64,000 nt of DNA from Phycisphaerae bacterium (GCA_046541415.1 JBKHDI010000013.1:1064-65063); one strand, 5' to 3'; shown: positions 1-16,400, numbered from the stretch's first letter. Program-made: numbers and translations. The notes: a model not told the origin generated them from the letters alone.

Positions 1-45
1 CCACCTTCCTGTCAAGGTTACCCCCGCCAAGGAAGCGAAAGACAA

Positions 46-1605
46 ATGAGACGCACAAGACTTTCCCTGATCCTGCTGCTGTTCATCGTGGCCCTGCCGG
101 TGGGGAAGATCCCCGCCCAGCAGGCCGAGACTGCGGATCGCCCGGCCGATGTAGAGCCCGCCGCCACACAGCCGCCCGAGCCTTCCGACGAGGAGACCTT
201 CGGCAAGGTTACCCGGCGCTGGCAGGAGAAGCTCCAGCAGAGCGTCGATGAGATCCAGGAGCTCCGAGAGCAGAGGCAGCAGACACTCGTCGAGCTGAAC
301 AAGCAGCTGAACCAGCTGGAAGACCGGTTGCTCCAGGCCCAGCAGGAGAATGAACGCATCAGCCGCCTGCAGAGCGAGAACATTCAGGCACGGAACAACC
401 TGAAGGACGAGATCGCAGGGCGCGAGAAGGTTGTCGACTACCTTCAGACGATTTTCGGCCAGTATGCCGACACCTTCACCGAACAGCTGCACGTCGCCGA
501 GCGACAGCGGTATCGTCCCGTGCTGGAATCGGCCCGCAAGGCCCGGTCCGACCAGTCGCTGTCGGATGCGGAAATGTTCGTCGAGCAGGTCAAGCTGATC
601 GACCTGTCGATCGACCGGCTGGAGGACGTTCTCGGCGGGACGCGCTTTGCCGGCCAGGCTGTCGACCCGCTGGATGACAACACCGTCAAGGACGGCATGT
701 TCGTGATCATCGGCCCGGCGGGGCTGTTCCGGTCCGACGACGGCAGCGCGGTCGGCACGGTGGAACAGCCGGTCGAGTCGACCGAAGACGCCGCGGCGGT
801 TACCGCCTTCGCCGACGAGCAGGACGCCCGTGCCGCGGCCGAGCTTGTCCGCTCGGGCAGCGGTCAGTTCCCGCTGGATACGACGCTGGGCAAGGCCCAC
901 AGAATCCAGGCGACCGAGGAGACGATCATCGAGCATATCCAGAAGGGCGGGCCTGTGATGGTGCCGATTTTGGGCATGGCGGGTCTGGCCCTGCTGGTGG
1001 TGCTCTATAAGTGGGTGGCCCTGACGTTGGTGCCCAAGCCCTCGGAGCGGAAGGTACAGGCCCTGCTGGATGCGGTGGCCGCCGGGGACGTCAACTCGGC
1101 CAAACAGCGCGTCGGCGAGATCAAGGGTCCGATCGGCCAGATGCTCAAGGCCGGTGTGAACCACATCCGCGAGCCGCGCGAGTTGATCGAAGAGGTCATG
1201 TACGAGAACGTCCTGTCGACCAAGCTCAAGCTCCAGCGGCTGCTGCCTTTCGTGGCCATCGCCGCCAGTTCGGCTCCGCTGCTGGGTCTGCTGGGTACGG
1301 TTACGGGCATTATCAACACGTTCAAGATGATCACCGTGCACGGTTCGGGCGATGTGAAGATGCTCTCGGGGGGCATATCCGAGGCGTTGATTACCACGGA
1401 GTTCGGCCTGATCGTTGCGATTCCCTCGCTGCTGCTGCACGCCTTCCTGACCCGCAAGGCCAAGGGCCTGAGCAACCGGATGGAGAAGACGGCAGTGGCG
1501 TTTGTCAACCAGGTGGGCAAGGTGCGGATCGACCAGGCCGAAGATATCCTGGCCAAAGCCGAAAGCAGCTCGCAGGTCGAGCAAGACGGAAAGGACCAGG
1601 GCTAG
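46..1605 (+). CDS. MotA/TolQ/ExbB proton-channel family protein, long form with an ~300 aa N-terminal coiled-coil periplasmic domain
   Basis: N-terminal signal sequence MRRTRLSLILLLFIVALPVG. Heptad-rich coiled coil (QELREQRQQTLVELNKQLNQLEDRLLQAQQENERISRLQ). C-terminal MotA/ExbB signature LLGLLGTVTGIINTF...GGISEALITTEFGLIVAIPSLLLHAF. Confidence 0.75.
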   Translation: MRRTRLSLILLLFIVALPVGKIPAQQAETADRPADVEPAATQPPEPSDEETFGKVTRRWQEKLQQSVDEIQELREQRQQTLVELNKQLNQLEDRLLQAQQENERISRLQSENIQARNNLKDEIAGREKVVDYLQTIFGQYADTFTEQLHVAERQRYRPVLESARKARSDQSLSDAEMFVEQVKLIDLSIDRLEDVLGGTRFAGQAVDPLDDNTVKDGMFVIIGPAGLFRSDDGSAVGTVEQPVESTEDAAAVTAFADEQDARAAAELVRSGSGQFPLDTTLGKAHRIQATEETIIEHIQKGGPVMVPILGMAGLALLVVLYKWVALTLVPKPSERKVQALLDAVAAGDVNSAKQRVGEIKGPIGQMLKAGVNHIREPRELIEEVMYENVLSTKLKLQRLLPFVAIAASSAPLLGLLGTVTGIINTFKMITVHGSGDVKMLSGGISEALITTEFGLIVAIPSLLLHAFLTRKAKGLSNRMEKTAVAFVNQVGKVRIDQAEDILAKAESSSQVEQDGKDQG

Positions 1606-1611
1606 CAGCCG

Positions 1612-2265
1612 ATGGAACAGATCCGAGGCATACTCGATCACTTTCCCGCGTTGTGGAACCAGGCGATTGCCATCTGGGCCTCGGGGGGCTGGGCGATGTA
1701 CGCCATCGCCGTAAACGCCCTGGTCATGTTCGGGATGGGAATGCACATCTGGTTCAAGCTGCGGGAGAAGGGTTTTTCGTCGGTGCCTGAGAAGACCTGG
1801 CGCCGGTGGATCGACCACCCGGACCAGCGCAAGGGCCCGGTCGGGCGGCTGCTGGATTTCGTCAGCGGCGCCCGCTCGCTGAAAGACTCAGCCATCAACT
1901 TTGAGGAGTTGCAGGCCTCGGAAGTCGCCCCGTTCCAGCGGGACCTGCTGGTGATGCGGATTGCCGTCGGCGCCGCGCCGCTTTTGGGCCTGCTGGGAAC
2001 GGTTACGGGCATGCTTTCGACGTTCGGAGCCATGGCCACCGGCACAGGCGGCGAGCAGACGATGGACCAGATTGCCAAGGGCATCAGCGAGGCGCTGGTG
2101 ACCACGGAGACCGGGCTGGTCATCGCCCTGCCCGGGCTGTTCATGCAGCACGCGCTGGGCAGGGGCGTGGAGAAGTACAAGGCGTTCCTGGCGCACCTGG
2201 AGACGGTATTCAACCAGAACCTTTACTGGCGGATCAAGGCGGGTCAGCCTTCGCCGGCGGCCTGA
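1612..2265 (+). CDS. exbB: ExbB/TolQ-type proton channel, short form
   Basis: LLGLLGTVTGMLSTFGAMA...GISEALVTTETGLVIALPGLFMQH. Three predicted TM helices. Start lies 7 bp after the previous stop. Confidence 0.8.
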   Translation: MEQIRGILDHFPALWNQAIAIWASGGWAMYAIAVNALVMFGMGMHIWFKLREKGFSSVPEKTWRRWIDHPDQRKGPVGRLLDFVSGARSLKDSAINFEELQASEVAPFQRDLLVMRIAVGAAPLLGLLGTVTGMLSTFGAMATGTGGEQTMDQIAKGISEALVTTETGLVIALPGLFMQHALGRGVEKYKAFLAHLETVFNQNLYWRIKAGQPSPAA

Positions 2266-2278
2266 GAAGGAAACGGAT

Positions 2279-2689
2279 ATGAGTCGATTTCGAGACAGTG
2301 CAGACGATGATCTCGGCGCGACGGGGATAGACATCTCCCCGCTGATGGACTGCGTTTTCATCCTGCTGATCTTCTTTATCGTCACCACGACGTTCGTCGA
2401 GGAGACGGGCGTGGAGGTCGAGAAGCCCGCCGCTGCGGCCGGGGAAAGCCTGGAGAAGAACTCCATCCTTATCGCCGTCACCCAGGGCGGGGAGGTGGTT
2501 TATGCGGGCAAAAAGATCGGCGTCGGCGGCGTCCGGCAGGTCGTTCAGCAGCAGTTGGAGGGCAACCCGGAGATGCCCGTGATCATCCAGTCGGACAAGT
2601 CGGCCCAGCACGGCCTGGCCATGCAGGTCTTCGGACAGGCCAAGACCGCCGGGGCCCTGAAAGTCAGCTTCGCCGTACAGGAAGAGTAA
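2279..2689 (+). CDS. exbD: ExbD/TolR biopolymer transport protein
   Basis: DISPLMDCVFILLIFFIVTTTF single TM helix plus periplasmic domain. Size and position after exbB fit. Confidence 0.8.
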   Translation: MSRFRDSADDDLGATGIDISPLMDCVFILLIFFIVTTTFVEETGVEVEKPAAAAGESLEKNSILIAVTQGGEVVYAGKKIGVGGVRQVVQQQLEGNPEMPVIIQSDKSAQHGLAMQVFGQAKTAGALKVSFAVQEE

Positions 2690-2699
2690 GCCCGAACTG

Positions 2700-3377
2700 A
2701 TGAAACCGTCAAACGGAACATCCTTGGCCCGGAAGATCGTCCAGCGGCTGCTGACGGCCGTGCTGGCCGTGGCGCTGACGCTGGCGTTCTTCCTGGTCCT
2801 GCCGGTCATCCAGACGATCAGCGAGGCGATCCAGCAGGACCGCTTCGTGGTGGTCACGCCGGAGGTCCCCGCCCCGGAGACGCCCCCGGACGTGCCCGAC
2901 CCGCCGGAACCGGAGGAAGAGGAGCCCGAAGATCAGCCCCCGCCGCAGATGGACCAGCCGAGCGACCAGCAACTGGCAGACCTGAACCAACTGGGCGACC
3001 TGCTCAGCGGTACCGGTGACAGCGTGGGCTTCGGCCAGAGTTTTGCCGCCCCGCAGATCGACACCCAGCAGTTTGCCGCCGCAGGGATGGACAGCATGGT
3101 CAACATGACCGAATTGGACCAGAAACCCAGGCCGATCTCGCAGGCCTCGCCGCGGACTCCTTCGCAGATGCGGGGCCGGGGCGGCAAGGTCCACGTGCTG
3201 TTCGACGTCAATCCGCAGGGCCGCGTTGAAAACGCCATCGTGGAACGCTCCACGCATCCCCTGCTGGACGCCCCTGCCCTGGAGGCGGTTCGCAAGTGGA
3301 CGTTCGAGCCGGGCAAACGGGCCGGTCAGCCCGCCCGCTTCCGCATGCGCGTACCCATCGTATTCCCCAAACGATAA
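2700..3377 (+). CDS. tonB: TonB-family energy transducer (N-terminal TM, Pro/Glu-rich spacer, C-terminal TonB domain)
   Basis: TM helix LLTAVLAVALTLAFFLVL. PEVPAPETPPDVPDPPEPEEEEPEDQPPPQ proline-rich linker. C-terminal ...LEAVRKWTFEPGKRAGQP fold typical of TonB_C. Confidence 0.65.
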   Translation: MKPSNGTSLARKIVQRLLTAVLAVALTLAFFLVLPVIQTISEAIQQDRFVVVTPEVPAPETPPDVPDPPEPEEEEPEDQPPPQMDQPSDQQLADLNQLGDLLSGTGDSVGFGQSFAAPQIDTQQFAAAGMDSMVNMTELDQKPRPISQASPRTPSQMRGRGGKVHVLFDVNPQGRVENAIVERSTHPLLDAPALEAVRKWTFEPGKRAGQPARFRMRVPIVFPKR

Positions 3378-3399
3378 CCCGATTCTGGAACCATATGAA

Positions 3400-4983
3400 A
3401 TGAATGACAGAGACTACACGATCCGGAACATCGATGCCCGGGCGATCCTGCTGGCGGCTCTGCCGCTGGTCTGTGCTGTCCTGGCCGGCTGCGAACTGAC
3501 CATCGACGGACAGCCGGTGTTCGGCAAGCAGGACCTGACCAGCAAGGACAAGGAAACCGACGCGCTGTACGAGCAGGGCACGGGCGTGCTGGAAGACGGC
3601 AGGGAGGTGCGTACCTTCGAGTCCGACGCCTCGCAGTTGGCTATCTGGCGCGACCCGCAGTTCCGCAAGGACTTCATGGACAGCTACATCGCGGTAACCG
3701 AAGTCGAACCGCCGGTAGCCGAAGTCGACAAGCCCGTGCTGCAGGAAATCCTGTTGCTGATGAACGACGGCAAGACCGAACAGGCGATCGCGCGGCTGGA
3801 GGAAATCCGAGGCCCCGACGCCACGCCGCAGTTCGACTTTCTGCTGGGCAACCTGTACCTCCAGAGGAAGGCCCCGGAGGACCAGAGCAAGCCGGATTCG
3901 GACTATAAGAAAGCGGCCGCGGCATTCACCGTGGCCACCAAGCGGTTTCCGCGGTTCCGCCGGGCCTGGAAGCAACTGGGCCTGACCTGGGTGCAGCTGA
4001 AGCAGTACGATCGTGCGGCCGAGGCACTGTCCAAGGCGGCCGGGCTGGGCGACAACGACGAGGTCACCTACGGCCTGCTGGGTTACAGCCAGATCATGAT
4101 GGAGAACCCCATCTCCGCCGAAAGCGCCTATCGCATGGCGATGATGATCAAGCCGGATCGCCTGGACTGGAAGATGGGGCTGGTCCAGAGCTTTTTCGCC
4201 CAGAAGCGGTACGCGGAGGCGGCCGCCCTGGCCGGTGAACTGCTCAAGGAGAACACCTCCAACGTTACCCTCTGGACGCTGCAGGGCAAGGCGTACCTGG
4301 GCATGGGCAAGTTCCTCCAGGCCGCTGAGAATTTCGAGCTGATCGACTCGATGGGTCATGCCGGCTATGACGATCTGGTCATGCTGGGTGACATTTACAT
4401 CAACGAGAAGCTCTACAGCCCGGCGGTATCTGCCTATCGGCGGGCGATCGAGAAGACCCGCTCGACTGAGGATCTGGATGCCGACGCTCTGTCGCGTCGG
4501 ATCGACCGGGCCCTGCGGGCGGCCAAGGCGTTGGCTTTCCAGGGCAGCCAGGCGGCGGATCAGGCTTCGGCCCTTCTCGGGCAGATAGAGCAGAACTACA
4601 GGCAGGAGATGACCGACGCCCAGCATACCGAGATGCTCAAGCTTCAGGCCCGTCTGGCCAAGGCCGATGAGCAGACCGAGCAGGAGGCGAAGCTGCTGCA
4701 GGAGATCGTCGCCCTGAATCCACGGGACGGCGAGGCGATGATGATGCTCGGGCGCTACTACGACCGGATCGGTCAGCCGGAAAAGGCCGCCGACACCTTC
4801 CAGCAGGCGGCCAATATCGAGGGCTTCGAGGCAGAGGCCAAGATCGGCCATGCCCAGGTGCTGGCTCGCCAGGGCAAGTTCGACCAGGCCCTGCCCCTGC
4901 TTCGCCAGAGCTATCAACTGGAGCCCAAGGCCAACGTCAAAGAGTACATCGAAAAGATCGAACGCTATCTGCGTTCACGCTGA
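3400..4983 (+). CDS. TPR-repeat lipoprotein (secretin pilotin/assembly-factor candidate)
   Basis: ATG at 3400 is in frame with the track ORF 3226..4983. Lipobox LAGC. Multiple TPR-like repeats (AYLGMGKFLQAAENFE..., LGRYYDRIGQPEKAADTFQQA). The upstream part of the track ORF overlaps tonB and is rejected. Confidence 0.6.
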   Translation: MNDRDYTIRNIDARAILLAALPLVCAVLAGCELTIDGQPVFGKQDLTSKDKETDALYEQGTGVLEDGREVRTFESDASQLAIWRDPQFRKDFMDSYIAVTEVEPPVAEVDKPVLQEILLLMNDGKTEQAIARLEEIRGPDATPQFDFLLGNLYLQRKAPEDQSKPDSDYKKAAAAFTVATKRFPRFRRAWKQLGLTWVQLKQYDRAAEALSKAAGLGDNDEVTYGLLGYSQIMMENPISAESAYRMAMMIKPDRLDWKMGLVQSFFAQKRYAEAAALAGELLKENTSNVTLWTLQGKAYLGMGKFLQAAENFELIDSMGHAGYDDLVMLGDIYINEKLYSPAVSAYRRAIEKTRSTEDLDADALSRRIDRALRAAKALAFQGSQAADQASALLGQIEQNYRQEMTDAQHTEMLKLQARLAKADEQTEQEAKLLQEIVALNPRDGEAMMMLGRYYDRIGQPEKAADTFQQAANIEGFEAEAKIGHAQVLARQGKFDQALPLLRQSYQLEPKANVKEYIEKIERYLRSR

Positions 4984-4998
4984 GTCAGGAGGTCGAGG

Positions 4999-7203
4999 AT
5001 GTCTGCTTTGCGAACTGAGATGTTGTCAATCGCCTGCCTGGCAGCAGTGGTGATGATCGTGCTGCCCCCGGCCGCACAGGGGCAGGATGCCGCCGACGGT
5101 GAGGGCATGATCGAGCTGAAGTTCCCCGAACAACTCGAATTGAAGGTGCTCGTCGACTACGTCGCCAAGCGCAACAAGCTGAACTTCATCTACGAGGCGA
5201 CCCACCTGGCCGGCAAGCGGGTGACGATTGTCGCCTCGCAGAAGATCCCGGCTGACTCGCTGATGTCCCTGCTGGAGAGTGTGCTGGCTTCGAAGGGGCT
5301 GGTGATGTCGGAAACAGCGGCCGGGATGATCCGCATCGACATGACCAAGCCGCTGCCCCAGACCTCGGCCGGTCCGATCGACCAGCAGCAGGGCGACCAG
5401 GCGGCCAGGCCTAACCAGGCCGTCACGCGCGTCATCCGCCTCCAGCACGCAGCGCCAAAGCAGGTCGAGCAGGTGATCAAGCCGTTCCTCTCGGCCGCGA
5501 CGGCCAACATCACGCGACTGGAGGAGCATGGCATACTCATCGTGACCGATTACGGCTCGAATATGCCGCGTCTGGCGCAGCTGGTCGAATTGGTCGATCA
5601 GCCGCCGCGGAACGTGCGGATCGAATTCGTGACCGTCGAGCACCTCCGGGCTGAGCAGGTCCAGAAGAAATTGACGGCGCTGATCCAGGGTCAGACCCGC
5701 GCCCGAGGCTCGCAGAGTGCTGTGACCGTGCTGGCCGACGCGCGGACGAACAATCTGATCGTCCTGGGTCCGGCCGCCCAGGTCTCCGAGACGCTGGAGA
5801 TGATCGCCCTGCTGGACATACCGCTGGGCACGGACCGCGTGGTCTACGTGCCGAAAGTCGCCTCGGCCGAGCGGCTGGACCGCCTGGTCCGCAACGCCCT
5901 GGACCCGCTGGAGGCCGAACGCCTCTATCGCAGCACGGTCGACCAGCAGTCGAACATCCTGATCGCGACGACCACACCGGAGATCCGCAGGCAGATCGAG
6001 GCGATCCTCGGAGCGATCGACAAGCCCCTGCCCGACTCCCAGAGCCCCATCCGCTTCTACAAGCTGGAGAACGCCAAGGCCGCCGACGTGCTGACCACGC
6101 TGCGGAGTATCGAGGGGGAAATGGGCCTTTCGGGCGTGAGCATCGACGGGCTGCAGGCCCCGCGCGAGCAGTCCGCCGAGGAGAGGCTGCCCATTCGGGG
6201 CCCGACGAGCGAGCAGGTCAACCGCAAGGCCGGGGCCGACGCCAACGGCGACAAGGCCGGTCCGGTCGAGCTTGGCGACGCCCGCGTGATGGCCGATGAG
6301 GCTTCGAATACGATCATCGTCATCGCCCGTCCGGCCATGCACCCGATCTACGAGAAGCTCATCAACCGCCTGGACGTCCGTCGGGCCCAGGTGCTGCTGG
6401 AATCGACCATCGTGGCCATCGACACAACGGACGGCTTCAGCCTGGGCGTGGAGATCTCCCGCTCCGACAAGGCCAACAGCGGCGAGGATACCGTCCTGAA
6501 CTTCAGCTCCTTCGGGCTGAGCACCATCGACGACGACGCACGGCTGTCGATCAAGCCGGGCGTCGGGTTCAATGGCACGCTGATCAGCGCGGAGATCGCC
6601 GACGTGGTGATCCGCGCGCTGAAAAGCGACAGCCGCGCCCGGGTTGTCTCCCGCCCGTCCCTGCTGATCAACGACAATGCCACCGGCACGCTGTCCAGCG
6701 AGTCCGAAGAGCCTTTCTCCAGCGTCAACGCCTCGACCTCCGTGGCCACAACGAGCTTCGGCGGCTATTCCTCTGCCGGGACGAAGATCAAGATGACCCC
6801 GCAGATCAGCCAGGGCGAACACCTGAAGCTCGAATACGAGATCACCCTCAGCAGCTTCGGCGAGGAGGTCTCGGACAACCTGCCTCCCTCCCGCCAGACC
6901 AACACGCTGGCCAGCGAGGCGACGATTCCCAATGGGTACACGATCATCGTCGGTGGCCTGAGCCGGTCGGACTTCAGCGAGAACATCGATCGCGTGCCCC
7001 TGCTGGGCGAGTTGCCCGGCCTGGAGTATCTCTTCAGCAACCGCGCCAAGACGCAACGCGAGGCGACGCTGTTCGTCTTCATCCGCGCCACCATCCTGCG
7101 GGACGATGAATTCACCAGCCTCAAGATGCTCTCGGCCCAGGCGGCCCGCGAGGCAGAACTCAAGGACGCTTACCCGACCAGCGAAGCCGTGGAAATCCCC
7201 TGA
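4999..7203 (+). CDS. gspD: Type II secretion system secretin GspD
   Basis: Signal peptide, N0/N1-like repeats, C-terminal secretin domain (VVSRPSLLINDNATGTLSSE...VPLLGELPGLEYLFSN...ATLFVFIRATIL). Confidence 0.85.
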   Translation: MSALRTEMLSIACLAAVVMIVLPPAAQGQDAADGEGMIELKFPEQLELKVLVDYVAKRNKLNFIYEATHLAGKRVTIVASQKIPADSLMSLLESVLASKGLVMSETAAGMIRIDMTKPLPQTSAGPIDQQQGDQAARPNQAVTRVIRLQHAAPKQVEQVIKPFLSAATANITRLEEHGILIVTDYGSNMPRLAQLVELVDQPPRNVRIEFVTVEHLRAEQVQKKLTALIQGQTRARGSQSAVTVLADARTNNLIVLGPAAQVSETLEMIALLDIPLGTDRVVYVPKVASAERLDRLVRNALDPLEAERLYRSTVDQQSNILIATTTPEIRRQIEAILGAIDKPLPDSQSPIRFYKLENAKAADVLTTLRSIEGEMGLSGVSIDGLQAPREQSAEERLPIRGPTSEQVNRKAGADANGDKAGPVELGDARVMADEASNTIIVIARPAMHPIYEKLINRLDVRRAQVLLESTIVAIDTTDGFSLGVEISRSDKANSGEDTVLNFSSFGLSTIDDDARLSIKPGVGFNGTLISAEIADVVIRALKSDSRARVVSRPSLLINDNATGTLSSESEEPFSSVNASTSVATTSFGGYSSAGTKIKMTPQISQGEHLKLEYEITLSSFGEEVSDNLPPSRQTNTLASEATIPNGYTIIVGGLSRSDFSENIDRVPLLGELPGLEYLFSNRAKTQREATLFVFIRATILRDDEFTSLKMLSAQAAREAELKDAYPTSEAVEIP

Positions 7204-7214
7204 AAGGCCCGGCC

Positions 7215-8831
7215 ATGATCGTGCATACCAACAAAGAACAATCCGCCAAATGCCCCGTGCAGATCGATAGCGACCCGGCAGAGTCTGCCGCCCCGGCCGC
7301 TGCGCCTGGGGCCGGTGAAGGCATTGCCGGTCTGGCCCCATCGGCCCGGTTCGTCAAGCGGTTCGACATCGCCTTCGCCCGGTCGCACCAGGTGCTCGGC
7401 CTGGCTGGGTCCGACGGGCCGCTGCAACTGGCGATGGCCGATCCGGACGATCAGCAGACCCGCGACGTTGTCCGCCGCTGGATGGGGCGGGCCCTGCGTG
7501 TCCGACGCGTCGAGGCCGGTCAGATCCAGGCGGCGATCAACCACGCTTACGGCCAGCAGGCCGGGGCCGCCCAGGAGTTCGTCGAGCAGCTCGATCGCGA
7601 AACCGTCCTGCAGGACATCGAGAAACTCGACACCCGCGAAGATCTGCTCAACGTCGCCGACCGTGCACCGGTGATCAAGCTGGTCAACCTCGTGCTCTTC
7701 GAGGCCGTCCGCCAGCAAGCCTCGGACATCCACGTCCAGCCGTACGAAGATCGCCTGGTCATCCGCATGCGGATCGACGGCGTCCTGTTCGATACCTTCG
7801 ACCTGCCCGCCGGCGTCCAGGCTGAACTGGTCAGCCGCATCAAGGTCATGAGCCGGATGAACATCGCCGAGAAACGCCTGCCCCAGGACGGGCGGGCCAG
7901 CGTGCAGATCGGCGACCGGCAGATCGACCTGCGCGTCTCGACCGTCCCGGCCAGCCATGGCGAACGCGTGGTTATCCGCCTGCTGGACAAATCCGTCCGC
8001 CTCTACACGCTGGACCAGTTGGGCATGGCCCCGGCGGCCTTGCGCCGCTTTGCCGACCTGATCGGCGTCGAGCACGGGCTGATCCTGGTCACCGGCCCGA
8101 CCGGCTCGGGCAAGACCACCACGCTCTATGCGGCCCTGGGGCAGATCAACTCGACCGAGCGGAACATCATCACGCTGGAAGACCCGATCGAGTACCAGCT
8201 TGACGGGATCAGCCAGATTCAGATCGCCGAGAAGAAGGGCATGACCTTCGCCAGCGGCCTGCGGTCGGTGCTCCGCCAGGACCCGGATATCGTGATGATC
8301 GGTGAGATCCGCGACCGCGAGACGGCGGTGATGGCGATTCAGTCTGCCCTGACCGGCCACCTGGTCTTCAGCACGCTGCACACCAACGACGCAGCCAGCG
8401 CAGTGACCCGCCTTCTGGACCTGGGCATTGAGCCGTACCTGGTCTCCAGTTCGCTGGTCGGCGTGCTGGCCCAGCGACTTGTCCGGCGCGTCTGCGGCGC
8501 CTGCAGCCGCCCGGTCAGGCCCAACAAGCTGCAGCTGCGCTCGCTGGGCGGCCAACTGGATGCCGCCGCGATGTCCGGCTTCCGTGTCGGGTCGGGCTGT
8601 CCGGCGTGTCGCCAGACCGGCTACCAGGGACGGGCGGGCGTGTTCGAACTGCTGCGTACCGACGAGGCCATCCGCCGGCTGATCCAGCAGCGCAGCAGCG
8701 CTGCCGAAATCCATTCCGCCGCCCTCGATGCCGGTATGCAGTCGCTGGCCGCCGACGCCCTGGGCAAGGCAACCCGCGGAATCACCAGCCTCGAAGAAGT
8801 CCACCGCATCTCCATGCAGGCCTGCACCTGA
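7215..8831 (+). CDS. gspE: Type II secretion ATPase GspE
   Basis: Walker A GPTGSGKTT. Asp box and His box (MIGEIRD...TGHLVFSTLHTND). C-terminal tetracysteine CGACSRP...CPACRQTG. Confidence 0.9.
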   Translation: MIVHTNKEQSAKCPVQIDSDPAESAAPAAAPGAGEGIAGLAPSARFVKRFDIAFARSHQVLGLAGSDGPLQLAMADPDDQQTRDVVRRWMGRALRVRRVEAGQIQAAINHAYGQQAGAAQEFVEQLDRETVLQDIEKLDTREDLLNVADRAPVIKLVNLVLFEAVRQQASDIHVQPYEDRLVIRMRIDGVLFDTFDLPAGVQAELVSRIKVMSRMNIAEKRLPQDGRASVQIGDRQIDLRVSTVPASHGERVVIRLLDKSVRLYTLDQLGMAPAALRRFADLIGVEHGLILVTGPTGSGKTTTLYAALGQINSTERNIITLEDPIEYQLDGISQIQIAEKKGMTFASGLRSVLRQDPDIVMIGEIRDRETAVMAIQSALTGHLVFSTLHTNDAASAVTRLLDLGIEPYLVSSSLVGVLAQRLVRRVCGACSRPVRPNKLQLRSLGGQLDAAAMSGFRVGSGCPACRQTGYQGRAGVFELLRTDEAIRRLIQQRSSAAEIHSAALDAGMQSLAADALGKATRGITSLEEVHRISMQACT

Positions 8832-10045
8832 TGCCCGTATTCACTTACACAGCCCGATCAGTCGGGGCCGGCCAGGCCCCTGAAATCCGCGGCACGATCA
8901 CGGCGGATTCACCCCGGTCTGCGCGCGATCAACTGCGTCGACGCGGCCTTTCGATCCGCCGGCTGGACCGCCAGTCCGCCGGACGGACCGGCTCGGCGGT
9001 CGGGCGGTATCTGACTCGCCGCCAGCGCGTCAAGGTCACAGGTCTGCTGCAGGAACTGGCCACGCTGCTCTCGGCGGGCATTCCGCTGCTGGAGGCGTTG
9101 GAGACGGCCTCCCGCCAGCACCGCGGGCGGTTCCGGCAAGGCCTCCTGCTGCTTCGCGACCACGTAGCGGCCGGCGGCTCGCTGGGACAGGCCCTGGCCG
9201 CCCAATCCGACCTGTTCGACCCGCTGTGCGTGAGCATCGTGGAAGTCGGGGAGAACGCCGGCACGCTGGATGTGTCTCTGACCCGGCTGGTCGAGTACCG
9301 CCGGACCGCGGCCGGGCTGAAGAACCGCGTCGCCTCGGCGCTGATGTACCCGATGATCGTCCTGGCTGCGGGGATCGGTGTGAGCCTGTTCCTGATGGCC
9401 TACGTCGTACCGAACCTGCTGGACAGCCTGGCTGCCAGCGGCAAGGACCTGCCGGCCGCGACGCGCATCGTCCGGGCATCCAGCGAGTTGATCCTCCATT
9501 GGTGGTGGCTGATGGCCCTGGCCGCCGGTGGGGCCTTGGCAGGGTTCGCCGCCCTGTTGCGCAGCGAGAAGGGGGGCAGGGCCTTCGACCGCGCCGTTTT
9601 GAGGATCCCGCTGCTGGGCGACCTGATCCGCAAACAATCGGTCGCCCGGATGTCGATGGTGCTGGCGGCGCTTCTCAAGAGCGGCCTGACCTTCGTCCAC
9701 GCCATCCGCATCGTTCGCCCGACGATCCGCAACCGGGTGATCCGCGACGCGCTGGTCAGCTGCGAGCAGGCGGTCGGGGCCGGACAGGATATCTCAGCCG
9801 CCCTGGAGCAGACCGAAGCTTTCGATCCGCTGGTGGTGCAGATCTTCGCCGTCGGTCAGGCGTCGGGCCACCTCGAGAAGATGCTCGAAAACCTCGCCGC
9901 CGACTACGAAACACAGGTCGAGCTGACCTCGCAGCGCCTGACGACGCTGCTGGAGCCGTTGATGATGATTCTCCTTGCGATCGTGGTGGGTTTCATCGCG
10001 TTCGCGACCATGCTACCCATACTGGAGGCTGGAAATGTTCTGTAA
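8831..10045 (+). CDS. gspF: Type II secretion inner-membrane platform protein GspF
   Basis: ATG at 8831 overlaps the gspE stop (ATGA). Two GspF-type cytoplasmic domains with three TM segments. C-terminal ...LPILEAGN. Confidence 0.85.
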   Translation: MPVFTYTARSVGAGQAPEIRGTITADSPRSARDQLRRRGLSIRRLDRQSAGRTGSAVGRYLTRRQRVKVTGLLQELATLLSAGIPLLEALETASRQHRGRFRQGLLLLRDHVAAGGSLGQALAAQSDLFDPLCVSIVEVGENAGTLDVSLTRLVEYRRTAAGLKNRVASALMYPMIVLAAGIGVSLFLMAYVVPNLLDSLAASGKDLPAATRIVRASSELILHWWWLMALAAGGALAGFAALLRSEKGGRAFDRAVLRIPLLGDLIRKQSVARMSMVLAALLKSGLTFVHAIRIVRPTIRNRVIRDALVSCEQAVGAGQDISAALEQTEAFDPLVVQIFAVGQASGHLEKMLENLAADYETQVELTSQRLTTLLEPLMMILLAIVVGFIAFATMLPILEAGNVL

Positions 10046-10454
10046 CACCAACCGCGGGACCCGCAGGCGACTTGCCGCCGCGGGCTTTACGTTCATCGAA
10101 GTGATGGTCGTCGTAGTGATCATCGGCATGCTCGCCGGCGCGGTTACGCTGAAGGTCCGCGACCACATGCAGACCGCGCGGGTCAACCGGGCCCGGGCCG
10201 ACATCCGCGTGATCGTCGAGGCCGTCGAAGCCTACAGCCTCAACCATGCCGGGGCCTACCCCACCAGCAGCGCGGGGCTGGAGGATGTGCAGGTCGACGT
10301 CGGCAAGGACCCGTGGGGCCAGCCCTACCAGTACAACCGGCCCGGGGCCAACGGCGAGCAGTTCGAGGTCTTCAGCCTCGGTGCCGACGGCCAGCCGGGC
10401 GGCGACGATGAAGACGCGGACATCTACTCCTGGCAACTCAAGGACGACCAGTAA
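10035..10454 (+). CDS. gspG: Major pseudopilin GspG
   Basis: Prepilin leader plus cleavage/methylation motif AAGFTFIEVMVVVVIIGMLAG. Conserved GspG core ...DPWGQPYQY. Confidence 0.8.
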   Translation: MFCNTNRGTRRRLAAAGFTFIEVMVVVVIIGMLAGAVTLKVRDHMQTARVNRARADIRVIVEAVEAYSLNHAGAYPTSSAGLEDVQVDVGKDPWGQPYQYNRPGANGEQFEVFSLGADGQPGGDDEDADIYSWQLKDDQ

Positions 10455-10456
10455 AC

Positions 10457-10990
10457 ATGCGACGCGGGTTTACCTTGATCGAGGTGATGGCCGTGGTGAT
10501 GGTCCTGGCCGTGCTGGCCGGGGCGGCCGCCTGGACGATGACCGAACAGCTGCGCAGCCGTCGGAGCCTGACGGCGATCGAGCAACTGACGGGGGCCGAC
10601 CGCACCGCGCGCCTCGCTGCCCGGTCCAACGGCGGATCGACGCGCCTGGAGATCGACCTCGATGCCGGCCTGTCCGTGCGGTACGACCAGCCGGAAGGGG
10701 CCCTGGCCGCCCGACGCGCCCATCCGATCCAGCTGCCCGACGGCACGGAGATGCGCCGGGTCTGGCTGCATCTGCCGTCGGGCAAAGTAGAAGTCCGACA
10801 CGGCCGGGTGAGCATCCCATACTCGACCGAGGGCAGCAGCCCGACCTATGCGATCGAACTGGCCCGGGCGGACCAAGCCCAGTGGCTGGTCGTGGCGGGC
10901 CTGACCGGACAAACCTTCCTCCAGCAGGAGACCCACCATGTCGAGGCGCTCTTTACGCTTCTCGCCGCGGGCCGGACTGACCCTGCTTGA
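10457..10990 (+). CDS. Minor pseudopilin (GspH-like)
   Basis: MRRGFTLIEVMAVVMVLAVLAGAA prepilin-type N-terminus. Position after gspG. Confidence 0.5.
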   Translation: MRRGFTLIEVMAVVMVLAVLAGAAAWTMTEQLRSRRSLTAIEQLTGADRTARLAARSNGGSTRLEIDLDAGLSVRYDQPEGALAARRAHPIQLPDGTEMRRVWLHLPSGKVEVRHGRVSIPYSTEGSSPTYAIELARADQAQWLVVAGLTGQTFLQQETHHVEALFTLLAAGRTDPA

Positions 10991-11381
10991 GGTCATCGCC
11001 GGTATCGCGATCCTCTCGACGATCCTCGTCTCGGCCGTGGTCTCGCGGTCGCGCCACGCCCGCCAATTGGCGATGTCCGAGCGGGTCGAGGTGGCCCTGG
11101 CGGCGGCCGATGAACTGATCGCCGACTGGTGGACCGATTCGGCGGGCTTGCCCGTGGGTCGCAGCGGACAGGTCCAGGCCGTCGAGAACATGATCTGGCA
11201 GGTCGCCGAAGTGCCGAACCTGCAGGCTCAACAGCTCGGCTGTCGGGTCGTGCGCGTCCAACTACTGCAGGAGGGCAGCATTGGCGGGATCGAAGATGGA
11301 CAGGTTCTGGCCGAGGTGGAACTCATGCTCCCTGCCGAGCGGCCCGAGCCGGAACAGCCCCAGCCGGAGCGGACGCCATGA
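10938..11381 (+). CDS. Minor pseudopilin (GspI-like)
   Basis: GLTLLEVIAGIAILSTIL prepilin-type N-terminus. Small size. Overlaps neighbours as in gsp operons. Confidence 0.45.
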   Translation: MSRRSLRFSPRAGLTLLEVIAGIAILSTILVSAVVSRSRHARQLAMSERVEVALAAADELIADWWTDSAGLPVGRSGQVQAVENMIWQVAEVPNLQAQQLGCRVVRVQLLQEGSIGGIEDGQVLAEVELMLPAERPEPEQPQPERTP

Positions 11382-12193
11382 TCGCGCGGACAGAGGCATT
11401 CACCCTGATCGAGGTCCTTGCCGCCACCGTCCTGACCGCCGGGCTGATGATGGGTGTCATGGCGGTGGTCTCGGATCTCGGTCCGGCGGGCATGGGCGTG
11501 CAGGAACCGGCCGAAGCGTTCCACCAAGGACTTCAGGAAGCAGCCGACCGCATTGCCTTCGACGTGGCAGCGGCCAGCGAGATCGACGCCTCTCTGCCGG
11601 GGCGAATCGTGCTGATCGGCTACTGCCGCCTCGACGGGCCGGCCGGTCGCCGCGTGCATCGGCCGGTGCGGGTCGAGTACCGCATCGAGACGATCGGGCA
11701 GATGCGCTGCCTTGTCCGCTACCAGCAGGGCCTGGACGTGCTGACCAACCAGAACCGGCGGCGCGACCTTCTCGGCGTCGGGCTCGAGCAGATCTCCCTG
11801 CAGGCCTCCCGTGGCGGGCAGGTGCTCAGCCAGTGGCAGCGGAGTCGACAGCCCGACCGCCCACCGGCCGGGCCTAGCAAACCCGCCGATGCCTCCAACG
11901 GCCCCGTCGCGTCGCGCGATCAACTCAATCCGTACGACTCGGTGAACATGAACGGCCTGATGATCTACATCAAGTACGCCCCTGACTGGGCGCTGATCAA
12001 AGAAGGTCTGCTGCTGCCCAGGCCCGAAGTCGGCCGAAACGATCGGTCCGGCACAGAAGATCAAACCCCTGCTGCACAACCAGACAACGGCCTGGCGTCG
12101 CCGCCGCCGGTCCGCTGGAGACTGCAACTGCGAGACAGCCAATCCGAACTGGACCGCACGATCTGGATTCAGCCCGAGGGGGCCAGCCAATGA
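11378..12193 (+). CDS. Minor pseudopilin (GspJ-like)
   Basis: ATG at 11378 in frame with the track ORF. EAFTLIEVLAATVLTAGLMMGVMAV prepilin-type N-terminus. Confidence 0.45.
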   Translation: MIARTEAFTLIEVLAATVLTAGLMMGVMAVVSDLGPAGMGVQEPAEAFHQGLQEAADRIAFDVAAASEIDASLPGRIVLIGYCRLDGPAGRRVHRPVRVEYRIETIGQMRCLVRYQQGLDVLTNQNRRRDLLGVGLEQISLQASRGGQVLSQWQRSRQPDRPPAGPSKPADASNGPVASRDQLNPYDSVNMNGLMIYIKYAPDWALIKEGLLLPRPEVGRNDRSGTEDQTPAAQPDNGLASPPPVRWRLQLRDSQSELDRTIWIQPEGASQ

Positions 12194-13107
12194 TGCCTCG
12201 TCGCAAACAACGCGGTTTCGTCCTTCTGATGGTGCTGGTCGTGGTGGTCCTGGCCGCGGCGGCGATGGTGGGCATGGTCCAGCGGAGCATGCTCCAGGCG
12301 GTCCATGTCAAGGCGCGGTCCGGGCAACTGCAACGCAAGTGGGCGGTCCGGTCGATGCAGCAGAGCCTGATGGGCCGGCTGCCGGAGATCCTCGATCGAC
12401 ACGACCAGGCCCGACTCGCCGGTAGCAGCGGCCAGGGCGACCAGGTGGGCCTGCAGGTCCGGTTGGCCGGCCGGGAGTATAGACTGGTCGTCACCGACCA
12501 GCAGGCCCGCGTGAATGTCAACAGCCTGCGCATCGGGCGCAGCCAGGGCGAAACCGAATCGCTGCTGCGGCGCTTGGTGGGCCCCGACTCGGCCGCGGCG
12601 GTGGAACTGGCCGCCCTGCCGGAGAACCAACTCCAAGACGCCCCTTCGCTGGCAAGGCCCATCGGGGCGTGGGGACAGATCTTTCCCCATGCAGGCCCCG
12701 CCGACCTGCTGGGCGTCTCGGGACGTCCAGGACTGACCGCCAGGATCACCTGCTTTTCCGATGGCAGGATCAACCTGGCCCGGGCCGATGGAGAATCGGT
12801 CCGCACCCTCTGCAACCAGGCCCTGACGCCGGCGGTGGTCGATGCCCTCCTGACCGCCCGAGATCATCAGCCGGACGGCAACCTGGGCGACTGGATCGGC
12901 CAGCTGGACCAGATCAGCCAACGCGACGCACACGAGATCCGTCGCTGGCTGACCGACCGTTCGGAGTGCTTCGGCCTGTGGATTGTTACCTCCAACGGGG
13001 CCAGAACGTGGTATCATTTCGCCGTGGGTCGCGTCCGGCCCGCTGCCAGGCCGGATGGCGATGGGCCTGTCAACGAAGTCAGCAACGTGGAAGTATACGG
13101 CTGGTAG
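12190..13107 (+). CDS. Minor pseudopilin (GspK-like)
   Basis: QRGFVLLMVLVVVVLAAAAM N-terminal hydrophobic segment. About 300 aa, matching GspK size and position. Confidence 0.45.
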   Translation: MMPRRKQRGFVLLMVLVVVVLAAAAMVGMVQRSMLQAVHVKARSGQLQRKWAVRSMQQSLMGRLPEILDRHDQARLAGSSGQGDQVGLQVRLAGREYRLVVTDQQARVNVNSLRIGRSQGETESLLRRLVGPDSAAAVELAALPENQLQDAPSLARPIGAWGQIFPHAGPADLLGVSGRPGLTARITCFSDGRINLARADGESVRTLCNQALTPAVVDALLTARDHQPDGNLGDWIGQLDQISQRDAHEIRRWLTDRSECFGLWIVTSNGARTWYHFAVGRVRPAARPDGDGPVNEVSNVEVYGW

Positions 13108-13111
13108 GCGA

Positions 13112-13633
13112 ATGAACAGGTCGGCGAAAATCAGGTCCTTCTATGCCGCGGCCGCCCTGGCCGCTTTGCTCTCCGTCGGTGCGGTGACCGCCGCCGTCGC
13201 CTGGCCGATCGAACTGGAGCCCACTCGACCGGGCCGACCGGCACGGCCTGCGGGTCAGGCCCAACGGCAGGAACCGTCGCAGACCGACGAGGCCGAGAAA
13301 CTCGACCCCGACCAGCTGGTTCGTCTGACGCAGGTCGATCTGCGCCGCCCCCTGTACGACGACCAGGTGACACAGACGCCCCGCTCTGCAGCTCCCCGCG
13401 CGCAGTTGACGGTCCGGCTGATCGGCATTGCCGTCGAGCCCGGCCATTCGGTGGCCATGTTGATCGACCCGGCCGGCAAAATCCTGCTGGCCCAGGCGGG
13501 CGAGACCGTCGAGATCCCCGGGGGGCCGATGAAGGTAATCGCGGTGCTTGATGATTCGATCCGCGTGGAGTTCCAGGGCCGGATCCAAGCCCTGCCCTTG
13601 CCCGAACCAGACCAGACGGGAGCGGGACGGTGA
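13112..13633 (+). CDS. Secreted/periplasmic hypothetical protein in the GspC/GspN position
   Basis: ATG at 13112. Signal-anchor FYAAAALAALLSVGAVTAAVA. No recognisable motif. Sits between the gspK-like and gspL-like genes. Confidence 0.3.
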   Translation: MNRSAKIRSFYAAAALAALLSVGAVTAAVAWPIELEPTRPGRPARPAGQAQRQEPSQTDEAEKLDPDQLVRLTQVDLRRPLYDDQVTQTPRSAAPRAQLTVRLIGIAVEPGHSVAMLIDPAGKILLAQAGETVEIPGGPMKVIAVLDDSIRVEFQGRIQALPLPEPDQTGAGR

Positions 13634-14967
13634 ACGAAATCGTCATCCTCTACGTCCGCTTCGAGCGGTGGATCCTCGTGGCCGGTCAGGCCGATCCGAT
13701 CCGGCTGGACTTCCCCGCCGAGACGCCACTGGCCGCCCGGGTCGAACAGGCCGACGCCGAGTTGAGCGATGAAGCGGCCGGCTGGCCCTGGGTTCTTGCC
13801 CCGGCCTCGCGAGACTGCCTGGTCGCGGCCATCGAAACCGACGACCTGCCTCGGGCCAACCGGCTGGATGCGATGAACTATCGCCTGGAGGAACAGTTGC
13901 CCGTATCGGCTGAGCAGATGCTCAGCAGCTACATCGAGCTTCCCGGCGGCCGGGCAGTGGGCATGGCGCTGGACAAGACGCAATGGGCACCGCTGGTCGA
14001 GGCCCTGCAGCAACACGGGCGGACGGTAACGGCCATCGTGCCCGAAGCCCTGCTGGCGGCCCGACGGGCACTAGCGGCCGCCGGCGAAGAGATCGATGCG
14101 GTCGTCAGCGCGGGCATCGAACCGGACGACGGGTGGGACTGGGTCCGCCTGGCCGAGGCCAAACCGGTGTCGTGGCAGTGGTGGGCGGATGACAGGCAGG
14201 GGCTGGTCGAGGCCGTCGCCGGCACGGCCGCTGCAGCCGGTTCGTCGATCCGCATCGTGGGCGTGGGCCTGGATGCCTCGCTGCAGGACCAGCTGGCCGG
14301 CCTGGAGCAGGTGGACTTGATCGGCTCGGAGCTGTCGAGTCTCCAGGCCACGGCCGCCGAGGCAGGACGGATCGTCGACGGTCGCGACTCTGCGTGGGGG
14401 GATTTCCGCGGCGACCCGTCCCTGCCTCCAACTTCTGCCGGACCCATGCGGCGGGCCATCACCGTTGCGACTGTCATGCTGACGCTGCTGCTGGCCAGCT
14501 TGGTCGCATCCGGCTGGCTGATGAGCAGGCGGTTTGAAGATCACGCCGCCCAGTTGGCCGCCCGCCAGGCCCAGTTGTACCGGCAGACTACCGACAGCAG
14601 GTCCGTGCCGCTGAATATCAACGCTCGCCTGCGCTCCGAACTGGTGTCCCTGGCGGGCCTGGGCGGCTCGGCCGGCGGGGCTGAACGCCCACAACAGCAG
14701 GTCTCGGCCCTGGTGCACCTGCGGAACATCCTGGCGGCCCTGCCCGAGGGTATCCGCCTGCGGGTCGACCAGATCCAGATCGACCAGGACCGGATCCGCC
14801 TGAGCGGCACGGCCCGGAACCTTGTCGAGGCTGAACAGCTGGCCGTGGCGCTGCGAGACTCCGGACTCTACACGGTCCAGCCGCCCGAGACGCGGGCCAT
14901 CGACGCCCGCAGCGTGCGGTTCTCGTTTACCGCCGAAACCAAACAGCAGGGGGTCGGCCCGAGATGA
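13630..14967 (+). CDS. GspL-like T2SS assembly protein (cytoplasmic domain, single TM, periplasmic domain)
   Basis: Overlaps the previous stop. Single mid-protein TM helix ITVATVMLTLLLASLVASGWLM. Size and position match GspL. Confidence 0.45.
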   Translation: MNEIVILYVRFERWILVAGQADPIRLDFPAETPLAARVEQADAELSDEAAGWPWVLAPASRDCLVAAIETDDLPRANRLDAMNYRLEEQLPVSAEQMLSSYIELPGGRAVGMALDKTQWAPLVEALQQHGRTVTAIVPEALLAARRALAAAGEEIDAVVSAGIEPDDGWDWVRLAEAKPVSWQWWADDRQGLVEAVAGTAAAAGSSIRIVGVGLDASLQDQLAGLEQVDLIGSELSSLQATAAEAGRIVDGRDSAWGDFRGDPSLPPTSAGPMRRAITVATVMLTLLLASLVASGWLMSRRFEDHAAQLAARQAQLYRQTTDSRSVPLNINARLRSELVSLAGLGGSAGGAERPQQQVSALVHLRNILAALPEGIRLRVDQIQIDQDRIRLSGTARNLVEAEQLAVALRDSGLYTVQPPETRAIDARSVRFSFTAETKQQGVGPR

Positions 14968-15491
14968 ACCCCCAGAAGCGACAGACGATTCTGATCGTAG
15001 TCATGCTGGCCATGCTCGCCGGTGCGGCGGCCTGGTCGATCGATTCTGCGATGGACAATGCAGATCGTGCTGCCCGCGCTGCCGACGCTCTGGGCCAGAC
15101 GCGATCCCTGGCCGAGCAGATCCGACAACTACGCCAGGCGCCGACCGTTGCCAGGACCGGCGAAATCGCCATCACACAGATGGGGCGCGAGATTTCCTCT
15201 GCTGCCGAGGCCGCGAACCTGCAACCCGCGTCGATCCAGGGCGTCCAGCCCCGGCCCGCCCGCCGCCTGGGCCAGTCGGACTACATGACCAAGGCAACCA
15301 CCATCTCGCTGCAAGGGGTAGGCCTTGGGCAATTGACGATGTTCCTGTATCATATCAGCGATCGGACGAATCTGACCGTCAGCGAGCTTCAACTGCAAGG
15401 CCGACGCGACGGCCAGAGCGGTGGGCCCTGGAACGCCCAGGCCACCGTGACGTACCTCATATACGCCCCAGCCGGGGCCGAGAATAACTGA
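14964..15491 (+). CDS. GspM-like T2SS protein
   Basis: N-terminal TM TILIVVMLAMLAGAAAWS followed by a ~150 aa periplasmic domain. Overlaps the gspL-like stop. Confidence 0.4.
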   Translation: MNPQKRQTILIVVMLAMLAGAAAWSIDSAMDNADRAARAADALGQTRSLAEQIRQLRQAPTVARTGEIAITQMGREISSAAEAANLQPASIQGVQPRPARRLGQSDYMTKATTISLQGVGLGQLTMFLYHISDRTNLTVSELQLQGRRDGQSGGPWNAQATVTYLIYAPAGAENN

Positions 15492-15505
15492 CAAAGCGAC
15501 GGGAC

Positions 15506-16135
15506 ATGCGACGACCTGTACGAGAAATCCTGCTTCTGCTGACAACCGCTGCCGCAGCGCTGGCCGTCGGTTGCGCAGACCGCAACGATGTGGAGTCCGA
15601 CGTCAGGTACCGTACCGTCCGGGCCGAGCCGCTGCGGGATACCCGCAAGGCCCAGGATCTCAATGCAAGGGGAATCGAACAGCTGCGCGCCGGCGACCTC
15701 GACGCGGCCGAGAAGACCTTCCGCCAGGCCATCGAGGCTGATGTCAGCTACGGCCCGGCCCACAACAACCTGGGCAAGGTCTACCTGCAGAAGAAGGACC
15801 TGCACCCGGCCGCTTTGGAATTCCAGGCGGCCATCGACCGTATGCCCGACCACGCCGGGCCCCTCAACAATCTCGCGATGACCTGGGAGCAGGCCTGGGT
15901 GGTCGATCCGCAACTGGGCAGCCTGGACCGGGCCATCGAGCTATACCGCCGCGCCGTGCAGCTCGACGCCGAAAACATCCGCTACAAGGCCAACCTCGCC
16001 CGGGCGCTGGATCGCCGCGGCGACCGGACCGACGAGTTGCGCAAGCTCATCGACCAGATCCTCCAGCAGGACACGCGGGCCGACTGGCTGATCTGGGCCC
16101 GCAAGCTCCAGGCCCGGCTGGGTCAGGGGCGATAG
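15506..16135 (+). CDS. TPR-repeat lipoprotein (PilF/PilW-type pilotin candidate)
   Basis: Lipobox LAVGC. TPR repeats (LDAAEKTFRQAIEADVSYGPAHNNLGKVYLQKKDLHPAALEFQAAID...). Confidence 0.55.
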   Translation: MRRPVREILLLLTTAAAALAVGCADRNDVESDVRYRTVRAEPLRDTRKAQDLNARGIEQLRAGDLDAAEKTFRQAIEADVSYGPAHNNLGKVYLQKKDLHPAALEFQAAIDRMPDHAGPLNNLAMTWEQAWVVDPQLGSLDRAIELYRRAVQLDAENIRYKANLARALDRRGDRTDELRKLIDQILQQDTRADWLIWARKLQARLGQGR

Positions 16136-16367: not shown

Positions 16368-16400
16368 GCAAAAAAAAGCCCGGCCAGGGGGAGAGCCGGG
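16368..16400 (-). terminator. Rho-independent terminator downstream of the XylR-type regulator gene
   Basis: Plus strand reads AAAAAAAA-GCCCGGC-cagggggaga-GCCGGGC. On the minus strand this is a GC hairpin followed by a U8 tract. Confidence 0.45.

Follow-up and report, generated by a model that had tools for sequence, protein, structure and literature searches.

The TonB2- and TonB3-type energy-transducing systems of Vibrio are encoded by six-gene operons, ttpB-ttpC-exbB-exbD-tonB-ttpD, in which ttpB specifies a DUF3450 protein (~255 aa) and ttpD a tetratricopeptide repeat (TPR) protein (~425 aa), and the tonB3 operon opens with an outer-membrane receptor gene (PMC6957404, PMC10734418). TtpD2 and TtpD3 are 23% alike (PMC6957404), the same six genes serve iron uptake and cellulose use in Teredinibacter turnerae, and ttpB, ttpC and ttpD have been described as restricted to vibrios and certain marine bacteria (PMC10734418). 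Here, in a stretch of 64,000 nucleotides from the metagenome-assembled genome of a Phycisphaerae bacterium (GCA_046541415.1 JBKHDI010000013.1:1064-65063; the window, by which we mean the whole stretch), we show that an array of 17 genes at 46-16135 consists of a Ton module of this type and a type II secretion system (T2SS) module, that each module also occurs without the other, and that their adjacency arose once and has mostly been kept since. We consider it likely that these are two autonomous machines of known types, fused co-directionally in one Phycisphaerales clade, so that secretion and uptake would be co-expressed. An apparent hybrid of motor and secretin is thereby re-filed as two ordinary, separable machines, with the first of its two TPR lipoproteins given to the right module. 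We found no relevant description of a Ton-T2SS link in Planctomycetes or Phycisphaerae in the literature, and the clade-conserved fusion from a single ancestral event is a modest new observation.

All 17 open reading frames (ORFs) lie on the + strand, with coordinates unchanged from the initial annotation, a reading of the sequence alone that had described co-directional genes with near-zero or overlapping gaps. That description is borne out by gaps of -53 to +22 nt, which from gene 1 to gene 17 run 6, 13, 10, 22, 15, 11, -1, -11, 2, -53, -4, -4, 4, -4, -4 and 14 nt. The G+C content at third codon positions (GC3) of all 17 ORFs is of coding type (0.76-0.89), and long antisense ORFs display the mirrored GC3 pattern of shadow frames. 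Gene identities were taken from Pfam and NCBIfam profile searches of the window's proteins, with NCBIfam calls judged against equivalog cutoffs, and these searches confirm the annotated gene list. The array was thought to begin at gene 1; instead, the edge of the window cuts it. A 7.1-kb contig from the same organism (L005; related loci carry L numbers), 100% identical over genes 1-6, encodes a 284-aa DUF3450 protein (PF11932, E 2.5e-18) directly upstream of gene 1, ending 4 nt into that gene, and before it a 71-aa receptor fragment that is 80% identical to the C terminus of the L006 receptor. Downstream, the array ends at an AraC/LacI-type regulator gene on the opposite strand. The features of the array, all on the + strand, are as follows.

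1-49, + strand: 3' end of a ttpB-like DUF3450 gene; its remainder and a TonB-dependent receptor gene, putatively of the Oar class, lie upstream of the window (L005)
46-1605, + strand: gene 1, TtpC-like long ExbB paralogue (519 aa); MotA_ExbB E 1.6e-29
1612-2265, + strand: gene 2, ExbB, short paralogue (217 aa); MotA_ExbB E 1.8e-20
2279-2689, + strand: gene 3, ExbD; PF02472 E 6.8e-26; transmembrane (TM) segment 22-40
2700-3377, + strand: gene 4, TonB; TonB_C E 8.5e-16, TIGR01352 above cutoff; TM 19-37
3400-4983, + strand: gene 5, TtpD-like TPR lipoprotein (527 aa, lipobox LAGC), last of the Ton module; TPR families
4999-7203, + strand: gene 6, GspD secretin; N0 (PF21305), four Secretin_N (PF03958), Secretin (PF00263)
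7215-8831, + strand: gene 7, GspE ATPase; TIGR02533 637 bits (cutoff 630), T2SSE E 2e-134
8831-10045, + strand: gene 8, GspF platform protein; T2SSF twice, E 7.9e-55; TIGR02120 319 bits, below cutoff
10035-10454, + strand: gene 9, GspG major pseudopilin; TIGR01710 108 bits (cutoff 88.85), T2SSG, N_methyl
10457-10990, + strand: gene 10, minor pseudopilin in the GspH position; N_methyl E 1.2e-6
10938-11381, + strand: gene 11, minor pseudopilin in the GspI position; N_methyl E 9e-4
11378-12193, + strand: gene 12, putative pseudopilin-like protein in the GspJ position; prepilin-like N terminus AFTLIEVLAA, no Pfam match
12190-13107, + strand: gene 13, GspK-like minor pseudopilin; weak, four-sequence profile against the PDB, top match GspK 3ci0_K E 0.024
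13112-13633, + strand: gene 14, GspC/GspB-like protein; N-terminal TM and beta domain of homology region (HR) type, without PDZ
13630-14967, + strand: gene 15, GspL-like protein; GspL_C E 6e-4, T2SSL E 0.03, PDB profile match GspL 4pht E 0.5
14964-15491, + strand: gene 16, GspM-like protein; weak, T2SSM E 0.033; TM 8-26
15506-16135, + strand: gene 17, small TPR lipoprotein (209 aa); TPR families, weak PilW and Tgl matches

Judged by sequence and gene order, genes 1-5 make up the final part of an operon of the Vibrio TonB2/TonB3 type, lacking none of its last five genes, because the order DUF3450-long ExbB-ExbB-ExbD-TonB-TPR behind a receptor gene equals that of the Vibrio operons. The six genes stand in identical order in Vibrio, Teredinibacter turnerae and Pseudoalteromonas, and the receptor heads the unit as in tonB3. 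Gene 1 encodes a signal peptide, a periplasmic helix, a hairpin and a beta domain, followed by a three-TM ExbB core (TM segments 302-320, 399-417 and 447-465) that, in an AlphaFold2 model with a predicted local distance difference test score of 76.5, superposes on E. coli ExbB (5sv0). In place of the coiled-coil extension of ~300 aa given in the initial annotation, the periplasmic part is modelled as a single long helix (54-147), followed by a helical hairpin and then a small beta domain (199-254). Gene 1 shares 29% identity over 452 aa, periplasmic N-terminal part included (E 2e-37), with its counterpart in a Pseudoalteromonas TonB2-type cluster (long ExbB-ExbB-ExbD-TonB-TPR), a long ExbB that served as comparison partner in place of a Vibrio TtpC. 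The short ExbB is 54-71% identical across 80 related loci. The ExbD TM helix contains the conserved Asp (PLMDCVFILL, as read off the sequence) and ExbB TM3 the Glu/Thr-Thr signature (GISEALxTTE), and in an alignment of relatives the ExbD Asp and ExbB TM3 columns are invariant. TonB has the layout of an N-terminal TM helix, a Pro/Glu-rich spacer and a TonB C-terminal domain. In relatives, the receptor is a protein of ~1000 aa with a CarboxypepD_reg N-terminal extension, a Plug domain and a barrel, an architecture by which it would belong to the Oar subclass, and a TonB-box-like MEEF(I/V)VQ(E/D)I follows the N-terminal extension.

The first TPR lipoprotein, gene 5, had been grouped with the T2SS. 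We assign it to the Ton module because its orthologues, which have in common with it the motif ELxIWNDPxFxKxFxESYxAETEIEP in the mature protein, follow tonB and do so mostly at loci without a T2SS; the motif is common to clade-A loci (see below) and non-A loci, most of which lack a T2SS. A function as a PilF/Tgl-like secretin pilotin is ruled out for this protein, as its orthologues close the Ton module at 60 loci without a secretin. In the subclade of the window (window 3400-3500; L006, L008, L024 and L087), a short conserved motif (C-x-LTIDG-x-PV) stands immediately behind the lipobox Cys, and it is absent from the basal fused loci and from unfused loci; the only other clade-specific feature of the TtpD-like protein is a variable N-terminal spacer.

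Genes 6-17 are a self-contained 12-gene T2SS module that runs from GspD to the small TPR lipoprotein. Like the Gsp-type systems of Klebsiella (Pul), Vibrio (Eps) and Dickeya (Out), it comprises a GspD with N0-N3 and secretin domains, GspE, GspF and GspG, four minor pseudopilin-like genes, and proteins resembling GspC/GspB (with an HR domain), GspL and GspM. For GspD, the orthologues of which are 42-70% identical, TIGR02517 is the best NCBIfam match, although at 305 bits it falls below the cutoff of 351. GspE contains the Walker A motif GPTGSGKT and a CxxC...CxxC motif. A type IV pilus system is ruled out as the identity of genes 6-17, given that GspE and GspG both score above the equivalog cutoffs for T2SS proteins and that PilT and PilMNOP genes are absent.

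The remaining components are more divergent and are proposed from profiles, topology and position. In searches of the PDB with profiles built from four orthologues, four of the five best matches of gene 14 are GspC HR domains (7oio, 2lnv, 6hcg (OutC) and 3oss; E 0.02-0.14) and the fifth is PilP, all five on residues ~90-169; the gene 14 orthologue in L172 has a weak PF11356 T2SSC match. Gene 15 is predicted to have a cytoplasmic domain, one TM segment (276-294) and a periplasmic domain, and its orthologues also match GspL_C. The gene 16 orthologue in L174 has a faint T2SSM match, and the PDB profile search returned nothing for the GspM-like gene. The TM topologies agree with the GspC, GspL and GspM assignments, and the position of gene 12 is kept in related loci. 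Gene 17, which always comes last in the 12-gene module whether Ton genes lie upstream or not, is a candidate secretin pilotin of the PilW/PilF/Tgl type. Genes 10 and 11 overlap by 53 nt (window 10938-10990), as against an annotated overlap of 62 nt in Mucisphaera calidilacus (L088:15943-16004), and this overlap of two minor pseudopilin genes appears conserved.

The module differs from the Gsp-type systems in that its order begins with gspD, its GspC-like protein is without a PDZ domain, neither gspO nor gspN lies in the cluster, its last gene encodes a TPR lipoprotein resembling the pilotins of type IV pili (PilW/PilF/Tgl) rather than GspS, and a Ton operon precedes it without a break. The absence of a prepilin peptidase, pointed out in the initial annotation, extends further: no Peptidase_A24 (GspO) was found in the cluster or among the 30 other window ORFs scanned, which are housekeeping genes. 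GspO is often encoded away from the T2SS cluster, so its absence there does not exclude membership of the T2SS family.

Two surveys, one from each side of the array, bear on whether the modules belong together. On the Ton side, species-representative genomes were scanned, with tblastn for the members of the unit. This yielded 80 loci in Planctomycetota (Phycisphaerae, anammox and others), Pontiella/Kiritimatiellota-type bacteria, Verrucomicrobiota and metagenome-assembled genomes (MAGs) of Omnitrophota. Nearly all of the 80 hold a nine-gene unit made up of a beta-helix protein, a ~410-aa protein, the Oar-class receptor (so called by architecture), DUF3450, long ExbB, ExbB, ExbD, TonB and the TPR protein (for example, L006:2828-15177 and L001:758-14761). 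The unit likewise surrounds the gene 1 homologues examined in Anaerohalosphaera lusitana and four other assemblies, where the TPR protein measures ~480-530 aa. Relative to Vibrio, the system is found in Planctomycetota and other phyla of the Planctomycetota-Verrucomicrobiota-Chlamydiota (PVC) group, with two extra conserved upstream genes (beta-helix and ~410-aa), a TPR protein that takes the form of a lipoprotein in the window and several, though not all, of its relatives, and, in one clade, an appended T2SS operon. That the six-gene Ttp-type system occurs widely across Planctomycetota and other PVC phyla, as against the restriction to vibrios and marine bacteria given in the literature, is a modest new point. 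In the Ton module of Mucisphaera calidilacus, ExbD is encoded twice in tandem (L088:6908-7747), as against once in the window and most relatives. Among the 67 informative Ton loci (non-redundant, with at least 2.5 kb of sequence beyond the TPR gene), gspD lies directly behind the TPR gene in seven and is not found there in 60.

On the T2SS side, only a few GspD orthologues exist, all of them in Phycisphaerae-like assemblies, and the 12-gene block persists down to about 37% GspD identity. The full array from receptor to T2SS is present in the cultured Mucisphaera calidilacus (Phycisphaerales; strain Pan265, CP036280, about 552.9-575.1 kb) and in a Phycisphaera sp. MAG. A T2SS of the same 12 genes stands behind unrelated genes in strain ZRK34, in a GC162 MAG, in L173, in L095 (where a glycosyltransferase gene takes the place of the Ton genes upstream) and at 14 sister-clade loci. 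A metagenome scan added 80 more loci on this side; the taxonomy labels of MAGs are unreliable. In a neighbour-joining tree of this single protein (42 GspD sequences, 200 bootstrap replicates), all Ton-adjacent loci fall in one clade (clade A) with a bootstrap value of 1.0. Within it, 16 loci are co-directional, two are inverted (L097 and L174), one has the modules separated (L095) and two are truncated, such that Ton and T2SS are adjacent at 18 of the 19 informative loci; in the other half of the tree, none of the 14 informative loci has Ton genes upstream. Because all Ton-adjacent loci form one clade and none lies outside it, the adjacency has a single origin and has mostly been kept since. 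The initial annotation had held that the arrangement would be coincidental if related genomes lacked it; it is retained throughout most of the clade, including in M. calidilacus. The composition of the modules is alike with and without fusion, both in the 12 genes of the T2SS and in the Ton genes (apart from the second ExbD of Mucisphaera).

The two inverted loci carry a five-gene Ton variant (DUF3450, long ExbB, ExbD, TonB and TPR; L097:4610-9738 and L174:2720-7565) that is head-to-head with gspD, is without the short ExbB and encodes proteins 31-39% identical to those of the window. The common upstream regions measure about 260 and 436 bp, and the receptor gene of L097 stays on the other side. 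As the Ton genes are inverted in this one sublineage, co-transcription is not obligatory. Beyond the T2SS, no clade-A locus contains a match to the AraC-type regulator of the window in the 0.7-1.3 kb of downstream flank available per locus, and in Mucisphaera the downstream genes encode a STAS protein and a sulfatase.

At the junction itself, 15 nt separate the stop codon of the TPR gene from the start of gspD in the window, including an AGGAGG ribosome-binding site, and there is no break in base composition. The gap is about 7-96 nt in fused loci elsewhere and 212 nt, AT-rich, in the basal member L101. This pattern suggests progressive integration of an operon, and, given that gaps of about 7-96 nt leave little room for a separate promoter, we infer that the two modules would be co-transcribed. 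A consensus scan of 1-18000 detected no terminator-like sites between the 17 genes. In L008 (6259-6313) and L087 (12328-12382), the TPR-gspD gap of 53 nt contains a GC-rich inverted repeat (GCCGTCGC..GCGACGGC) without a T-run, which might attenuate read-through into the T2SS genes.

Collectively, these results favour the reading as two autonomous machines. The first module, which starts upstream of the window, would be a Ttp-type Ton system of receptor, TtpB/DUF3450, TtpC-like ExbB, ExbB, ExbD, TonB and TtpD-like lipoprotein, in which a proton channel of ExbB/TtpC and ExbD converts the proton-motive force (PMF) into a pull on TonB, and the TonB C-terminal domain is expected to open the co-encoded receptor, and probably others too, by binding their TonB boxes. 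The second would be an ATP-driven T2SS with a GspE/F/L/M/C platform, a GspG pseudopilus tipped by four minor pseudopilins, the GspD secretin and a candidate TPR pilotin, its prepilin peptidase presumably encoded elsewhere. We propose that the T2SS was placed directly behind the Ton module in the ancestor of one Phycisphaerales clade, that the distance between the two then narrowed to about 7-96 bp and that the T2SS is now probably transcribed with, or by read-through from, the Ton operon. The benefit would most likely be that two devices for nutrient acquisition are expressed together, one to secrete enzymes and the other to import products, and not a mechanical link. We infer this physiological rationale, as we do the roles of the weakly matched genes, from the composition and distribution of the modules.

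Several observations weigh against this reading. Gene 5 has no significant sequence similarity to the TPR protein of Pseudoalteromonas, so that its putative homology to TtpD is argued from where it lies and how it is built, and the GspC, GspL, GspM, GspJ and GspK assignments, made from sequence, are weak. In the promoter and terminator scan of 1-18000, counts equalled the shuffled expectation, and the consensus used does not cover planctomycete promoters, which makes the scan uninformative there. A tree of TtpC, ExbB and ExbD places the fused loci in about four groups and not one, with deep nodes that are star-like and unresolved. Finally, the adjacency is retained at 18 of 19 loci, at GspD identities as low as 42% and with changing flanks, which exceeds what is usual under neutral drift and is compatible with a functional tie tighter than co-expression.

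The alternative that survives best is that the operons became neighbours once by accident and have been unbroken since, with neither selected co-expression nor a functional link. Each module stands on its own elsewhere, breaks or rearrangements of the adjacency have occurred at least twice (L095; L097/L174), with L030 and L054 as possible further cases, and the AT-rich gap of the basal L101 could hold a promoter of its own. The persistence of the adjacency down to 42% GspD identity argues the other way, as the downstream regulator is unmatched in clade A (over a limited flank) and the downstream genes of Mucisphaera differ, and so do the mostly 7-96-nt gaps, which have the pattern of operon integration and little room for a promoter. 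We regard such neutrality as unlikely.

Physical coupling of a PMF-driven motor to the secretin, put forward in the initial annotation, fares less well: the adjacency behind it is conserved in the clade, but nothing specific supports the coupling, given a self-contained Ton type with its own receptor and modules that are separable. It would mean that the Ton motor was recruited by the T2SS in this clade, the TonB C-terminal domain or the TPR protein contacting the GspD N0 ring and the PMF aiding gating, assembly or expulsion of cargo, which we judge very unlikely. In its favour are the single-origin adjacency at 18 of 19 clade members with mostly operon-like gaps and the persistence of that adjacency despite inversion in L097 and L174, as well as reports that a few T2SS substrates require the PMF (PMC6434023). 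The suggestion that N0 is a fold that interacts with TonB boxes is a loose one: N0 resembles a domain of the TonB-dependent receptor FpvA, but the partners documented for N0 are HR domains, those of GspC and GspB (PMC4098917, PMC9239104). The idea has a historical precedent in ExeB/GspB (Aeromonas ExeAB, Dickeya OutB), a Pro-rich inner-membrane protein once proposed to act in a TonB-like manner on the secretin N0 (PMC4098917); GspB was later found to bind N0 through a GspC-like HR domain, not a TonB-like one, in a scaffold role (PMC9239104). Gene 14 of the window appears to be an HR-domain protein of that kind, and the ExeAB/OutB systems have no ExbB/ExbD motor, in contrast to the true TonB_C protein found here with its own ExbB/ExbD and receptor.

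Against coupling, too, the Ton unit owns a receptor with a TonB-box-like motif and has no T2SS alongside at 60 of 67 loci, an identical 12-gene T2SS without adjacent Ton genes exists in sister lineages and in L095, and fusion neither removed nor added nor visibly changed any Ton or T2SS component. GspD displays no clade-specific TonB-box-like N-terminal segment or strand, its N0 start motif M(I/V)xLNFPE being common to fused and unfused lineages. The arrangement also departs from the type IX secretion system GldLM and Myxococcus Agl-Glt, in which the motor is obligatory and co-inherited, as here the T2SS occurs without Ton at 14 sister loci and L095 and Ton mostly occurs without the T2SS. Engagement of a combined GspD N0/GspC-HR ring by the TonB C-terminal domain or the TtpD-like lipoprotein, with the PMF assisting secretin gating, assembly or cargo expulsion, is highly improbable; if true, it would explain in molecular terms why some type II secretion depends on the PMF, as has long been reported without an explanation. 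The fused clade is a natural setting for testing co-regulation of secretion and TonB-dependent uptake, with a mechanical link as a long shot.

The least probable alternative is a locus devoted wholly to export, in which the Oar-class receptor and Ton act in protein secretion as Myxococcus xanthus Oar does for PopC, giving two outer-membrane routes for common cargo: the relatives' receptor does carry the N-terminal CarboxypepD_reg extension by which the Oar subclass is defined, and Oar, encoded beside exbB/exbD/tonB, is required together with ExbB/ExbD/TonB for PopC secretion (PMC6434023), but the Ton cluster of Oar is not of the Ttp type, the subclass call comes from domain architecture alone, no evident cargo gene, PopC-like or otherwise, was noticed in the unit, and this analysis found no evidence for export, which for the Phycisphaerae receptor is pure speculation.

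Elsewhere in the window, a thiC gene lies at 19580-21600 on the - strand (ThiC_Rad_SAM E 1e-175); Rfam and transfer RNA scans of the whole window gave no matches, including no thiamine pyrophosphate riboswitch at the gathering threshold. At 45253-51089, three genes for ParA/NUBPL-type P-loop NTPases, two with 4Fe-4S ferredoxin domains and one with a Nitro_FeMo-Co domain, flank a PAS/sigma-54 activator gene (47775-49304). The prolyl-tRNA synthetase ORF at 41157-44207 (+ strand) spans 1016 aa, and because its synthetase domain begins only at residue ~506 and a minus-strand ORF with high GC3 (41313-42353; 0.90) overlaps its first part, the true start is probably much further downstream. The - strand also encodes two glycoside hydrolases (GH), a GH2 beta-galactosidase at 34507-37644 and a GH28 pectinase-type hydrolase at 56858-58270.

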